Assembly: GCA_035084275.1 (NCBI GenBank)
Contig: CM068746.1
Coordinates: 41,726,001-41,790,000 of the forward strand
DNA from: Hydrolagus colliei
Lineage: Eukaryota
Direction: 5' to 3'
Length of the DNA stretch: 64,000 nt
Within the stretch, counting starts at the first letter, position 1; each line of letters opens with the position of its first letter. The notes under the pieces are model-generated. The model saw only the letters and a list, made by a program, of their open reading frames with translations. It ran no database searches and had not been told where the DNA came from. A program made the position numbers and the translations under genes. This document shows positions 11,904-36,638 of this stretch, piece after piece.

Positions 11904-12190
11904 CAAACTGGTCACTTTGGACCAGATTAACTCCAAGGGGACCTGTTTTACCCCTTCCCACCCAAGCAGGTGAGTCACAAATTGGTTATTTGACATCTAT
12001 CAAGCCCAGTTTAAAAATCCCATTCACCTCAAATTACTATGGCCCAAACTCTGTCCATAGAATTTGGATCATACTAGATTCTTCTTATACCTGCACTTCG
12101 GTATTCAATGTGAATAATTTAGAAATAATAACTAGAGTGAAGTTCTAGGATCTGGGAATTCTGTTCTGAAATAATCATCTTTTTGTTCAG

Positions 12191-12591
12191 CTTTTGCAGC
12201 AAAGAATTCATATGGAAACGAAGATAACAAATACATGGATAGAGTTGGAAAACCTTTCTTTGGAGTTAAAAAAGACACAACTACATCTGGACCGAAAGAA
12301 CAACCTGGCTACGAACCCATCAACCAACCTAGCTATGAACCAATGAACGAACCATATTTCTATGATGATCCTCCGAAAAACAGTGTCCCATTGTCTTATG
12401 CCCCCGTTAACTGGTATGCTGGTAAACCATCCAGCTTTGAAATGACAAAGGATAAATTCACCCTGGCTGCTGATCGAACTTGTAAAGATGTATCTGGCAT
12501 TTGTAAAGGCGCTTGCAGAGATGGCTATGTTGCTTTGAATGGCGTTTGTTACAAATACATCCACCTCCAACTGTGCTTCGCTGATGCAGAG
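12191..12591 (+). CDS. C-type lectin coding exon 2 (Tyr/Pro-rich N-terminal region and start of CTLD)
   Basis: ttttgttcag| AFAAKNSY...QPGYEPINQPSYEPMNEPY...CRDGYVALNGVCYKYIHLQLCFADAE |gtaacg; overlaps ORF 12235..12672. Confidence 0.9.
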
Positions 12592-12692
12592 GTAACGTAC
12601 CCAAGATTTCAGTTACGTTATGAGCGGTATATTATTGTTCCATTGTTGATCACCGTTTCAGTGAGAAAATAGATTTTGCTTTGCCTCAAACC

Positions 12693-15297: not shown

Positions 15298-15367
15298 TTA
15301 CGGGTGTTAAAGTATCAATTCTTATTTTGAAATGAATAACTGTGATTTTTCGTTACTCAATCCACAG

Positions 15368-15508
15368 CAATACTGCAAACAAACTGCTCCCGATGGCCAC
15401 CTTGCATCCATTCACTGCCGATTGAATCATATGTTTGTCAAAAGTGTGATTGAGGTCTCGTACATAACATATCCGTATACATGGCTTGGAGGCAGTGACT
15501 GCAGCAAA
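15368..15508 (+). CDS. C-type lectin coding exon 3
   Basis: tccacag| QYCKQTAPDGHLASIHCRLNHMFVKSVIEVSYITYPYTWLGGSDCSK |gtaagt, 141 nt, phase 0-0. Confidence 0.92.
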
Positions 15509-16079
15509 GTAAGTATCACCTTTTTCTGGCTCCACCAAATGTATTTTTGTTAGTATTACTCCCACAATTTATTTTCCAATCTCTAAATAATCTATTTCCA
15601 AGATAACTGTATTGAGAAAGCAGGTGACTGGGTCCCAGGCCTGAAGCGTGTCGCGTTAAACTGGTAACTACCTGGTCTGCCTGAGATTCACAACTCACTT
15701 TGCAACCCAGCCATTGTGCAAAATACTGTAATAGTGTGTACCCCACAATACCGTACACAATACTGTAATTGTACTCTACATTACTCAGCACAGTATTTTA
15801 CAGATCTACCATTACACACAATGCATTAGGTTGCAATACTGGAGCATATACACAGTTTAGTATTGTACAAATAAACACAGTAAAAACTACAGTACATACT
15901 AATATATACAGTACAATTCTAATGAAGTGTATAAAGCACAATCCTGTGTCACTGTGCACAGCACAACAGTTTCCCAATAGCCCAATACAACATGAATCTG
16001 CAGTAGCATCGACTCATCCTTTCCTGGGATTGTTGGACACCTGGCGATAGGTAACTAAAATGTGATTGATTCACCGTAG

Positions 16080-25654: not shown

Positions 25655-25788
25655 TCATTCACACGCCAGTTTACTGTCAAAGCTGGACAGTCCAATTGCG
25701 AAGGCCTGGAGGGCGCATACTGGGTAGTTGTAGTCCATTGTGAAAACATCTTCAGCTACTCTTCCAAACTGCATCACAATGTAGTCAG
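25655..25788 (-). CDS. TULP3: TULP3-like terminal exon
   Basis: ttctcaccag| (P)[46 protein letters not shown]. Confidence 0.95.
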
Positions 25789-32142: not shown

Positions 32143-32271
32143 CTGGCGCTCCTGTGTCCCCGTCACTGCTTTTCTCCAACTGGCAACCTTCCTGCAGCTT
32201 TTTCAGTGTACAAGCTCCTGAATCATCATTTGGGAGCTCATTCTCCTCATCCCTATCTTTATCTTCTCCTG
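32143..32271 (-). CDS. Candidate cassette exon C of the tubby gene (43 codons)
   Basis: cattag|CAG... AGEDKDRDEENELPNDDSGACTLKKLQEGCQLEKSSDGDTGAP +G |gttagc; 129 nt, phase 1-1, open. Confidence 0.65.
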
Positions 32272-32534
32272 CTAATGGACATGTCATAAGAAGAGAAGGC
32301 GAAAGCATGCAAACACTGAGCAACTGCCAGGGTGAGTAAATTATAATTATCCAATTTGTGCACTTAATTTTTGCCCCATACATCTCGTACAGAAGCAGCC
32401 ACTGCCCTCACAACTCACAACACAGTCACACACAGACATTATCTGAAACAAGGGCAGCTGGTGCCTGTCTCACACACATATGCTGTCCATTCAAAGAGGA
32501 TGGAGCAGTGGGCAGGACGGGATTTGTTTTCAAA

Positions 32535-32871
32535 TCCCTCCACTCCTCTGCACACCCCTACCTGTTACCTTCACTCCACCGGGTCTGGCCTCCTCCATGT
32601 CCCCCCAAATCCTTCACTCCACCCTCGGCGGCCGGGCCTTCAGCCACTGCGCTCGCCCCGAGGCTCTGGAATTCCCTTCCTCACTCCCTTCACCTCGCCC
32701 CCTCTTTTCTCAGCTGCTTCAGGTCCCAGCTGAAGACCTTTCTCTTCAACTGCGCCTTTGGTCACCTTTCTCTCCCTGCCCCTGGCTTGGTCCCGGGATC
32801 CGCTATTGTGAAGCGCTCTGAGACGCCTTCCGGCGTGGAGGGCGCTATATAAATCAAAGTTGTTGTTGTTG
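32535..32871 (+). mobile_element. L2-type LINE 3' end
   Basis: RAFSHCAP/LWNSLP/FRSQLKTFLF motifs and tail ggcgctatataaatcaaa(gtt)n. Confidence 0.8.
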
Positions 32872-33512
32872 AGGAGGATTGGGTCCAGATCTGACCTAAA
32901 TGTTGCTTTTGGTCGTGCATTTAAATCTCAATATCCAGCACATTGCACAGAATACATGACAGATGAAATTCCAGGCATTACAACATGGGAATGTTACCTG
33001 GTGTTTTAGTGCTTTGGCTTCAAGTTTATCACAAGGCTTGTGGTGTTCATTTTATAATCTGAAAATTGTTGGAATCTCTCCCCCACCCAAAAATAACAGG
33101 TAAGTGAAATCATACCTCAGCCAAATCCTGACCTCTCACTCGTTCTGCGCACAAGCATTTTCTAGCAAAGTGCTCTGAGAAACCATTTTTCTCCTCCCTA
33201 ACCAAGAGACAGAGGACATGAGTAGCCCTGACAGCTGACTGGCTAACATCCACTATGTCTGCATTAATTCAGGGTCAAATTCAGGCCCTTCTTGTCTCCT
33301 ATCTTTATTGCTCAGTTTCACACTCAGCTAGCCGGGGCAGCACCAATTACGTCAGAGCAGGGAGAAGCTGTGACATTGGAATATAAAGCTGGTTTTACCA
33401 GTGAGCCACACTGTTGCAGTGGCGTGGCTCACATGCGTCTGAATCAAGCAACATACAATGAAATGTGGATCACTTTCTACACTAACATGTTGTGCTCATT
33501 GTTAGTGCTAAC

Positions 33513-33644
33513 CTGACGGTTCTTTCTTCCTTTCCTTCTTCCTTTCCAATTCATAAGCATCTTGCATGTTTTTCAACAGAAGGAGTCTTAAGGTTTCCTC
33601 AGAGAACTCAGTCTCCCCAGTCTTCATTAAACTCTCTTCCTCTG
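33513..33644 (-). CDS. Candidate cassette exon B of the tubby gene (44 codons)
   Basis: tttcctttccgtag|CAG... AEEESLMKTGETEFSEETLRLLLLKNMQDAYELERKKERKKEPS +G |gttagc; 132 nt, phase 1-1, open. Confidence 0.65.
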
Positions 33645-34159
33645 CTACGGAAAGGAAACACGGAGCAGTAAGAACCCCTCCTCCACCTGTCACATAGGAG
33701 ATAACATGCCAGGAAACTCAGTCAGTTTAACTGGGACTAGACAGTTCTCAGTTTTAATCTGGTGAGTCCACTCATCCCTTTCAAGGTTGATGGGAGTATA
33801 ATTTGCTGAACCTGTTGAGTTCTTTACGATGTTTCTGGTTTACGATGTGCATTGCCTTTAGATTCGAATTCAGCTAACTCCAGAAAAAAGCCAGCAAATA
33901 AAATGCTTGCGGAAGTAATCTGGTTGGAATCAATTATTGACTGTGTTGGAATCATTGTGCACTGATTTGACTAACTCTGCAAGGAACTTATTTAACACAG
34001 CAATGTGGACGGGCTCTGGTTGGAATCAAGTAGTGACTATTTTAGAATCAGGAGTCTAGAACTGCACTTTGGGACTGAATTGAAGGGCACTCCCAAGAAA
34101 TCCATTGGTTGGCATTGCTGCTGTGACAAACTCGGGCAATACTGTAACGCTGAGGGGCT

Positions 34160-34455
34160 GCCGAGGGAATGTGGGATGGAAATCCAAAGGTTGGGGGCAG
34201 AGTGGCTGAAGACGATGATGGTGGGGTGGGGACGTGGAGCAGGCTGGAGCCCAATGAGCGGAGGGATCGGATAGGTTGGTAGGGGAATTAGGAGGTGACG
34301 GGGGAGGGCGGGCAAAGCCATGGAGGGCTTTGAAGGTGAGGACCAGGATCTTAAATTGAATCCTGTGTGATGGGAAGCCAGTTGAGTGGGGCGAGGATGA
34401 GGATGATAGGTTTGCTGAGCCTGGTGTGGGAGAGAACACGGCTGCAGCTCATTTC
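34160..34455 (-). mobile_element. L2 LINE fragment
   Basis: HRIQFKILVLTFKALHG motif in ORF 34056..34439. Confidence 0.75.
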
Positions 34456-34864
34456 CTCTCTGGCACCGGGCTCTGTGACGCCACCATGCCCAACCTTGCC
34501 CAGCTCCACTGGCTCCCCATCCCTCAGACAGAATCCCAAATCCTTGTCCTCACTTTTAAGGCTCTGGCCTGCTGCATGTCTGCCGCATGATCGGCTGCCA
34601 GGCTCTCAGCCTCTCTGCCCCTACCCATTGAGAAAGTATCCTCTCATTGCTCATTTTGTTCTCACTAAGCTGGAGTACAATATCTGTCACTGTATCACCT
34701 AATGTGCAAATGCCGTATAACTGCTTTAATAAGTTAAATAATTAAACAAGTGTTTTTCATAACTTCAGCTGACCAGTTCATCTGTTTTATTCACTCCAGT
34801 TCCTGAGAGGAAAGAGTGGATTTCCATTTCCGCAGGACGAGCCTACTGTGATTTTAAAGCTAAC

Positions 34865-34990
34865 CTGACTGTCCTTTGTTCCTGTCACTGCTTCTTGCCA
34901 GCTGGTGAGCTGTCTGCACATTTTTCAATTTATGAATCCTTAAAGGTTCCTCGAGCAACTTGTTCTCAGTCTTCCTTCTATCATCTCCTG
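34865..34990 (-). CDS. Candidate cassette exon A of the tubby gene (42 codons)
   Basis: gacattag|CAG... AGDDRRKTENKLLEEPLRIHKLKNVQTAHQLARSSDRNKGQS +G |gttagc; 126 nt, phase 1-1, open; not in the ORF track. Confidence 0.62.
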
Positions 34991-35186
34991 CTAATGTCAA
35001 TTAACAAAGGCAAAGGTGGCTGAAAAGGAACATTCTAGCCAGGAATACATAACACAATCGTTTAAAACTTGCATTCACCTCCCTCTGAACAGACATAAGG
35101 TTCAACTCAAAGTTGAATTAATCTGTATCCAATTTAGACTGCTCAGTCTGTAAGAACATCTCAGTTAATTACTCCATCTCAAGTAT

Positions 35187-36531
35187 AGAATCATAGAATC
35201 ATAGAATTTTACGGCACAAAAGGAGGCCATTCGGCCCATCTAGTCTGTGCCGGCTCTTTGAAAAGAGCGATTCAATCCCACTGCCCTGCCCGCTCCCCAT
35301 AGCCTAACAGACCCGTTCTCCCTAAATAAAGATCTAATTCCCTTTTAAAAGTTGTTATCGAATCAGCCTCCACCACCTTTTCAGGCAATGCATTCCAGAT
35401 TCGAACAACTCGCTGAGTGAAAAAATTTCTCCTCAGCTCCCCTCTACTGCGCCTTGAAACTATTTTAAATCTGTGACCACGAGTCACAGATTCACCCACG
35501 AGTGGAAATAGTTTTTCTCTATTTGCCCTGTCGAAACCCCTCATGATCTTATAAACCTCTATTAGGTCTCCCCTCAATCTTCTCTGCTCCAGAGAGAATA
35601 ACCCTAGCCTATCTAGCCTCTCCTCATAGCTGAAGTCCCTCAATCCTGGCACCATCCTAGTAAATCTTCGTTGTACCCTTTCCAATGCCTTCACATCCTT
35701 TCTGTAGTGTGGTGACCAGAATTGAACACAGTATTCCAGCTGAGGCCTCACCAAAGTCCTATAGAGGTTAGTCAGCACTTCCTGACTTTTGTACTCTATA
35801 CCCCTATTTATAAAGCCTAGTATCCCATATGCCTTCTTAACAGCCTTGTCTACCTGTCCTGCCACCTTCAACGAGTCACTAACACAAATCCCCAGGTCTC
35901 TCTGTTCCTTTACACCATTTAAAATTGTACTATCTAGCCTATATTGCCTCCCTTCATTTCTTCTCCCAAAATGCATCACCTCACACTTCTCTGCATTAAA
36001 CTTCATCTGCCATGTGTCTGCCCACTTTACCAATTTGTCTATATCCTCTTGCAGATGGCTACTATCCTCCTCACTGTTTACTATTCTCCCTAACTTAGTG
36101 TCATCTGCAAACTTGGAAACTGTACTCTGTACACCCAAGTCCAGATCATTGATGTAGATTACAAACAGCAATGGTCCCAAAACTGATCCCTGTGGCACAC
36201 CACTGCTCACTTCCCTCCAATCTGAAAAACAGCCGCTCACTACAACTCTCTGCTTTCTGTCTCGCAGCCAGTTGTGGATCCGCGCTGCCACTGTCCCTTT
36301 TACGCCATGGGCCTTTAATTTCATAATAAGTCTCTCATGTGGCACTTTGTCAAATGCCTTTTGAAAGTCCATGTAAACTACATCAACTGCGCTACCATTA
36401 TCCACCCATTCCGTTACCTCATCAAAAAATTCTATCAGATTTATAAGGCAAGATTTGCCTTTAACAAATCCATGTTGACTGTCCTTTATTAGCCTATATC
36501 TTTCTAAGTGAAGATCTACCTTGTCCCTGAT
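35187..36531 (-). mobile_element. Young 5'-truncated CR1 LINE with uninterrupted RT frame
   Basis: ORF 35272..36405 has YMDFQKAFDKVPH, SGVPQGSVLGP, KFADDTKL, RPQLEYC; frame stays open to the truncation point; (attctatg)n tail; AAGTAT at 35181-35186 and 36636-36641. Confidence 0.97.
35272..36405 (-). CDS. CR1 ORF2 C-terminal part (reverse transcriptase), truncated
   Basis: 377-aa ORF with non-LTR RT motifs; lacks the endonuclease domain. Confidence 0.85.
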   Translation of the reverse strand: MDNGSAVDVVYMDFQKAFDKVPHERLIMKLKAHGVKGTVAARIHNWLRDRKQRVVVSGCFSDWREVSSGVPQGSVLGPLLFVIYINDLDLGVQSTVSKFADDTKLGRIVNSEEDSSHLQEDIDKLVKWADTWQMKFNAEKCEVMHFGRRNEGRQYRLDSTILNGVKEQRDLGICVSDSLKVAGQVDKAVKKAYGILGFINRGIEYKSQEVLTNLYRTLVRPQLEYCVQFWSPHYRKDVKALERVQRRFTRMVPGLRDFSYEERLDRLGLFSLEQRRLRGDLIEVYKIMRGFDRANREKLFPLVGESVTRGHRFKIVSRRSRGELRRNFFTQRVVRIWNALPEKVVEADSITTFKRELDLYLGRTGLLGYGERAGQWD

Positions 36532-36638
36532 TATAAGTGCAAGTTGATGTTGTTGCTGTCTGTGCTTTAAGATATGTTAATGATTAGTTGGTGAGGTACT
36601 GGAGAGCACATGTGGAACTGTACCCCAATAGAAAGAAG
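36532..36638. repeat. 107-bp perfect inverted copy of 39313-39419
   Basis: tataagtgcaagttgatg...ccccaatagaaagaag is the exact reverse complement of 39313-39419. Confidence 0.95.

Follow-up and report, generated by a model that had tools for sequence, protein, structure and literature searches.

What does the third intron of the tubby-family gene in this stretch of DNA hold, and how would its contents be used? An earlier note on the same DNA, a 64-kb stretch that we call the window, had claimed that the intron hides three in-frame cassette exons (here X1, X2 and X3) of a TULP3-like gene. We read them as three tandem copies of one phase 1-1 TULP3 exon, and on balance we think it probable that they are optional, additive cassettes that lengthen an unstructured linker stepwise.

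Judged by its sequence, the gene is the TULP3 of a chimaera, not TUB or TULP1. A full 13-exon model from the window (43627 to the stop at 25655) is identical to isoform X1 of Callorhinchus milii TULP3 at 535 of 570 residues, and RHNO1 lies ~6 kb past the right edge of the window on the same strand; together these bear out the TULP3-like label of the earlier note. The adjacency of RHNO1 and TULP3 is also visible as a fused protein model. TULP3 was the best PDB match of the gene, and the C. milii ortholog carries the tubby domain (PF01167, E 6.6e-98) and the Tub_N domain (PF16322, E 1.5e-39). Exon 1 was not found by a motif scan of window positions 43627-64000; relatives have several alternative first exons. 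On the plus strand of the window, open stretches at 12175-12669 and 15311-15550 gave Pfam matches only below the cut-off, and we take their cysteine and tryptophan spacing to recall pieces of C-type lectins.

The coordinates, lengths and phase reported earlier for the three exons (Table 1) were reproduced on direct inspection, as were their splice sites. Read directly in the window, all three acceptors are TAG|CAG and all three donors G|GTTAGC, and the minus strand of the window contains the string GGTTAGC in only three places, each of them one of these donors. Each exon has a single open frame, which is the phase 1-1 frame, and all three have the properties of a cassette, being a multiple of three long, symmetric in phase and free of stops. 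The 13-exon model, taken from exon 2 to the stop, stays open in 8/8 inclusion patterns with either of the NAGNAG acceptors. The introns between the copies measure 1220 and 1241 nt.

Table 1. Features of the TULP3 locus, with positions counted from the first base of the window.
Feature	Position	Strand	Remarks
TULP3 exon 2 (start of N-terminal helix)	43627-43576	minus	
TULP3 exon upstream of the cassettes	38833-38671	minus	end of IFT-A-binding N-terminal region, phase-1 donor; 98% identical to C. milii
LINE reverse-transcriptase frame	36576-35275	minus	434 stop-free codons, PF00078 E 1.8e-26; within the intron directly before X1, outside the cassettes
Cassette exon X1	34990-34865	minus	126 nt, phase 1-1, NAGNAG acceptor, GTTAGC donor
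Cassette exon X2	33644-33513	minus	132 nt, phase 1-1
Cassette exon X3	32271-32143	minus	129 nt, phase 1-1
TULP3 exon downstream of the cassettes	31151-30990	minus	linker exon, phase-1 acceptor; 89% identical to C. milii
Remaining TULP3 exons (end of linker and tubby domain)	30854-30736, 30476-30279, 29593-29481, 28033-27919, 27696-27598, 26817-26646, 25788-25655	minus	

The claim that one exon was duplicated in tandem also held, because the copies resemble each other above shuffled sequence and have the same phase and splice context. Pairwise protein scores of 68, 52 and 34 were equalled by 0, 0 and 9 of 2000 shuffles, and the DNA score of every pair by none of 1000. A repeat finder returned the copies as one three-copy family (77 nt, 61-74% identity to the reference copy, spacing 1370/1352), and five alignment columns are invariant across them. 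Adjacent homologous exons in the same phase and splice context are what define a tandem exon duplication. The spacing of the copies is nearly constant (1370 and 1352 nt) though the introns between them are unalignable and hold different repeats, a regularity that may be chance.

These exons are not hidden, as had been supposed: the RefSeq TULP3 models of C. milii, a second chimaera, already include all three. The isoforms X1-X5 (XP_042191245.1 to XP_042191249.1, with the earlier XP_007903306.1; all predicted models) comprise a form with the three exons X1, X2 and X3 (577 aa), two with X3 alone (491 and 490 aa), one with X1 alone (490 aa, XP_042191247.1) and one with none (448 aa). The two models with X3 alone differ in the NAGNAG acceptor used, so that both variants of the proposed acceptor are present in predicted models. 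The same three exons are open in C. milii, in keeping with the claim that they have been retained in frame. A protein search with a profile of the three exons gave one match among 439 candidates, isoform X1 of C. milii TULP3. The earlier note had counted up to eight isoforms; all eight are arithmetically possible and in frame, but 4/8 patterns are annotated in C. milii, and X2 is modelled only inside the three-exon isoform. By extension from the predicted gene models of this other chimaera, the window species likely includes and skips these exons as well.

In a tree, each window copy pairs one-to-one with a C. milii copy (support 95/89, 100/97 and 99/97), and the triplication is therefore older than the split of the two chimaeras. 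Order and frame of the exons are equal in both species. Identity between them is 93% for X1, 86% for X2 and 77% for X3, compared with 89-90% for two constitutive linker exons and 97-100% for exons E2, E3 and E6-E9. One difference is the loss from the window X3 of an ancestral C-terminal end, which is still present in C. milii X3. The 3' end of the window X3 (32143-32190) resembles that of X1 (34865-34910), where C. milii X3 retains the ancestral, shark-like end, and X1 and X3 are separated by a low synonymous distance (0.40; 1.41 and 0.67 for the other pairs); conversion between X1 and X3 in this lineage is possible, going by the sequences.

We found that the exon, of ~43 codons, is a chondrichthyan-wide TULP3 module present in one to three copies, a distribution that the earlier note had missed. 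Used as a query, the N-terminal region drew 644 matches; the best 120 of 644 were considered and 21 clusters opened. Among the matches listed, the models of 22/22 named shark and ray species have a homologous exon of 42-43 residues at the junction. Copy numbers were counted in protein models rather than by genome scans: among these matches there are two copies in 8/22 species (Heptranchias, Pristiophorus, Heterodontus, Carcharodon, Cetorhinus, two Scyliorhinus and Mustelus) and one in 14/22 (five carpet sharks and nine batoids). Forms that skip the exon were observed in 13 chondrichthyan species, C. milii included, among the matches listed. In a skate-like cluster, nine Logan-only proteins, from contigs of 1.8-3.6 kb, and a Leucoraja protein that is also in Logan include the exon, and none of the 13 members is a skip form. 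The coding exons span 18 kb in the window, so these contigs are most likely spliced RNA, and on this evidence skates would mainly include the exon.

The chimaera exons were scored with a profile made from 26 copies of sharks and rays only. All six chimaera copies exceeded 500/500 shuffles; in the window, X1 scored 27.5 bits, X2 17.2 and X3 14.7, each reached by 0/500 shuffles. Against 1664 stop-free pieces of the window, the three exons ranked first, with E values of 1.4e-6, 0.0044 and 0.021, and 2.3 for the next piece. The shark and ray cassette thus agrees with that of the chimaeras in position, phase, length and homologous sequence, in having both skip and inclusion models, and in the NAGNAG variant, whereas it differs in copy number (one or two versus three) and is far more conserved. 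In the free tree, the shark and chimaera duplications were separated, but by no starred branch (85/72; 42 columns). Approximately unbiased (AU) tests on the same 42 columns rejected a grouping of shark copy B with chimaera X2 (p 0.014) and did not reject one with X3 (p 0.187 and 0.344).

To consider what such an exon might do, its place in the protein is informative. The N-terminal helix of TULP3 binds IFT122, while an unstructured linker and the tubby domain reach the membrane, as described in the accessible text of 10.1101/2022.08.09.503213. The cassettes would sit at the start of this linker, with the IFT-A-binding helix on one side and the tubby domain on the other. In C. milii, the stretch from the helix region to the tubby domain is 154, 197 or 283 residues by isoform; inclusion would accordingly extend a linker of ~154 residues to 197 or 283. 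A longer linker may alter how far the protein reaches from the IFT train to the membrane, and the charge of that stretch, leaving the two binding ends untouched. After the triplication, the copies may have been kept mainly as spliceable, in-frame spacers, with their amino acids diverging quickly. Human TULP3 (PDB 8fh3_I), an IFT-A cargo adaptor, has the same N-terminal IFT-A helix, unstructured linker and tubby domain but carries no insert at the cassette junction: it runs directly from residue 84 to 85, in agreement with the earlier note, which has the flanking exons joined there. No functional test of TULP3 linker length was found in the literature searched.

Across five shark and ray pairs, the cassette exon is 67-88% identical and the constitutive next exon 52-89%; the cassette is about as conserved as its neighbour, and we conclude that it is constrained there. 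The chimaera copies, by comparison with the shark exon, diverged fast: C. milii X1 and X3 are 38-40% identical to it, versus 61% for the next exon. Possibly the ancestral exon has a role in sharks and rays, whereas the additional copies of the chimaeras, and X2 in particular, are tolerated by-products, spliced at a low level into a floppy region, that stay open since breaking the frame would be harmful. This fast divergence would fit such a reading, as would the paralog dN/dS values, which are near or above 1 in two of three pairs (0.36, 1.48 and 1.09 on 41-42 codons, and noisy), the fact that X2 is never modelled alone, and the seemingly unrelated inserts that other lineages carry at the intron-3 junction. 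Weak constraint at the protein level fits near-neutral retention also. Against it, both chimaeras have the three copies intact, with identities (77-93%) close to those of the constitutive linker exons, and the exons with their 7-base donor have been preserved while the flanks diverged past detection: among the window copies, exons align (0/500 shuffles) and flanks of 130 nt do not (38-393/500). Neutral simulations, under assumed distances of 0.2-0.3 per branch and assumed indel rates, left all three frames and their splice sites intact in at most 0.008 of cases. We consider tolerated by-products an unlikely account of the copies.

A different possibility is that the exon bears a short binding motif or helix, so that copying the exon would alter its dose or bring in variant partners, with length secondary. 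The strong conservation of the exon core in sharks and rays and the five invariant columns of the window copies could be explained in this way. A weak hint comes from C. milii residues 136-164 (in X2), predicted as a helix (pLDDT ~57-82) that begins with a leucine run fitting the LxxLL pattern. The AlphaFold model concerned, from a 31-row alignment, has a mean pLDDT of 36 and leaves the tubby domain unfolded, and its low scores are therefore not usable as proof of disorder. However, none of the copies matched a Pfam family or gave a usable ESM Atlas match, their charges are very different (K+R/D+E of 10/6, 9/12 and 5/13), and the exon is missing from human TULP3 and from most of the bony-vertebrate models retrieved. 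We regard a motif as the main role of the exon as improbable, and retain additive lengthening of the linker as the preferred reading.

Inserts at the same junction were also observed outside the cartilaginous fishes. Models from coelacanth and newt have two optional inserts there and include one, both or neither; gar models carry both of two inserts, only the second, or neither, and sturgeon also has inserts. One insert is common to coelacanth, gar and sturgeon (coelacanth-gar 0-1/300 shuffles), and a search with a profile of the bony inserts found only five proteins, from gar, coelacanth and sturgeon, among 410 candidates. Like the chondrichthyan exon, the inserts of coelacanth, gar, sturgeon and newt are in frame, optional and at the same TULP3 junction, but a relation in sequence is not established: against the chondrichthyan profile, the best of 14 reached 5/500 shuffles, and profile-profile comparisons gave P values of 0.06-0.29, with 4, 24 and 0 of 100 shuffles. 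Four bird inserts at the junction, taken from partial models, had no profile match and were set aside. A later coelacanth model, three Logan-only proteins of the newt cluster and Logan-only proteins of the lungfish and eel clusters are free of inserts, which indicates that junction inserts can be minor forms. In bowfin, bichir, paddlefish, gar and sturgeon, a further insert lies later in the linker, past the exon that follows the cassettes, and is missing from shorter isoforms.

A broader proposal would make TULP3 intron 3 an ancient regulated switch of jawed vertebrates. Optional linker modules directly after the IFT-A helix would have multiplied in separate events, to three in chimaeras and to two each in sharks, coelacanth, gar and newt, and would have been lost in amniotes; a tissue-specific reach of the tubby domain from the IFT train would then select the ciliary cargo. 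We offer this as speculation, and think it improbable as a whole.

The same genome has two further tubby genes, a TUB-like and a TULP1-like paralog on contigs C24 and C29 (C24:8179800-8197700 and C29:2965300-2981000), and a TEAD gene lies ~80 kb from the tubby gene on C29. According to the earlier note, human TUB has one phase-1 exon at the matching junction. The TUB-like gene of this genome has a 12-kb intron there, and its next exon begins like that of TULP3. No homolog of the cassette was found among 1064 stop-free pieces in 40 kb of the TUB-like and TULP1-like loci (best E 1.4), nor did the cassette profile find anything in 20 kb of the TUB-like locus; a strict exon scan of the 12-kb intron gave two unconvincing candidates.

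The earlier note had also suggested that the copies might be used in a mutually exclusive way, with one of the three substituting for another in each isoform. Homologous exons that lie in tandem, share one phase and are almost equal in length invite this idea, and some predicted models do include a single copy (X1 or X3 alone in C. milii; A or B alone in Pristiophorus). Yet, among the matches listed, predicted models combine copies in 9/9 multi-copy species and skip every copy in 7/9. No device that would enforce exclusion (a very short intron, frame-dependent decay or pairing) was seen in the stretches tested. In particular, two intron stretches contained no docking and selector pairing common to the three copies, one of six pairing tests (the downstream flank of X2) lay ~2 SD below shuffles, and there was no pairing device among the 25 longest of 56 inverted repeats. 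Given joint inclusion, long introns, combinations that are all neutral to the frame and no shared pairing in the stretches tested, the copies are best read as adding rather than substituting, and mutual exclusion is contradicted to the point of being very improbable.

The segments are, finally, single-copy DNA. The X1 sequence has one match in its own 1.0-Gb genome, which is itself, and the X2 peptide has two, itself and X1. Depth over the three exons is ~49-58, a single-copy value, where the intronic repeats reach 1e4-4e6, in a DNA run that possibly comes from the window's own source sample, so that depth is not independent of the assembly. A dispersed repeat family, which the earlier note had named as grounds for doubt, is thus not what the genome matches and read depth indicate. 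An origin of the segments as dispersed repeat or assembly artefact, an idea prompted by repeat-rich introns and the LINE just upstream, can be dismissed, since they are single-copy by genome search and read depth and have orthologous coding exons in 23 other species among the matches listed. The LINE copy itself (35180-36576, minus strand, sense to TULP3) has a short tandem-repeat tail that ends ~190 nt before the X1 acceptor.

Taken as a kind, this is a real feature and an ordinary exon duplication, annotated already in public databases. Exons duplicated in tandem are frequent and often tied to mutually exclusive choice, according to the accessible text of PMC9013439 and PMC9741552, and the TULP3 copies share with those cases their tandem origin, their homologous in-phase exons and their age. 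They are unlike them in being co-included or all skipped in the models, thus adding rather than substituting, and in falling in a disordered linker. The accessible text of PMC9741552 adds that conservation of disordered residues between duplicated regions is poor, and the divergence of the TULP3 copies is consistent with this. The term TULP is absent from the main texts of both papers, whose supplementary event tables could list tubby genes, and TULP3 cassette exons are untreated in the accessible parts of PMC10151737 and PMC9118107. No paper describing them was found in the literature searched, which comprised the main texts of largely open-access papers.

The significance is modest: tandem exon duplication is common and these exons are publicly modelled, and the result is a useful footnote for the specialist rather than a surprise. 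What it adds is that the linker of TULP3, commonly depicted as a passive tether, holds an exon conserved across the cartilaginous fishes in one to three copies, and that several early-branching bony vertebrates carry optional inserts there too. The isoforms would provide a natural series of linker lengths (~154, 197 and 283 residues) with which to ask if the length or sequence of the tether affects ciliary cargo loading.
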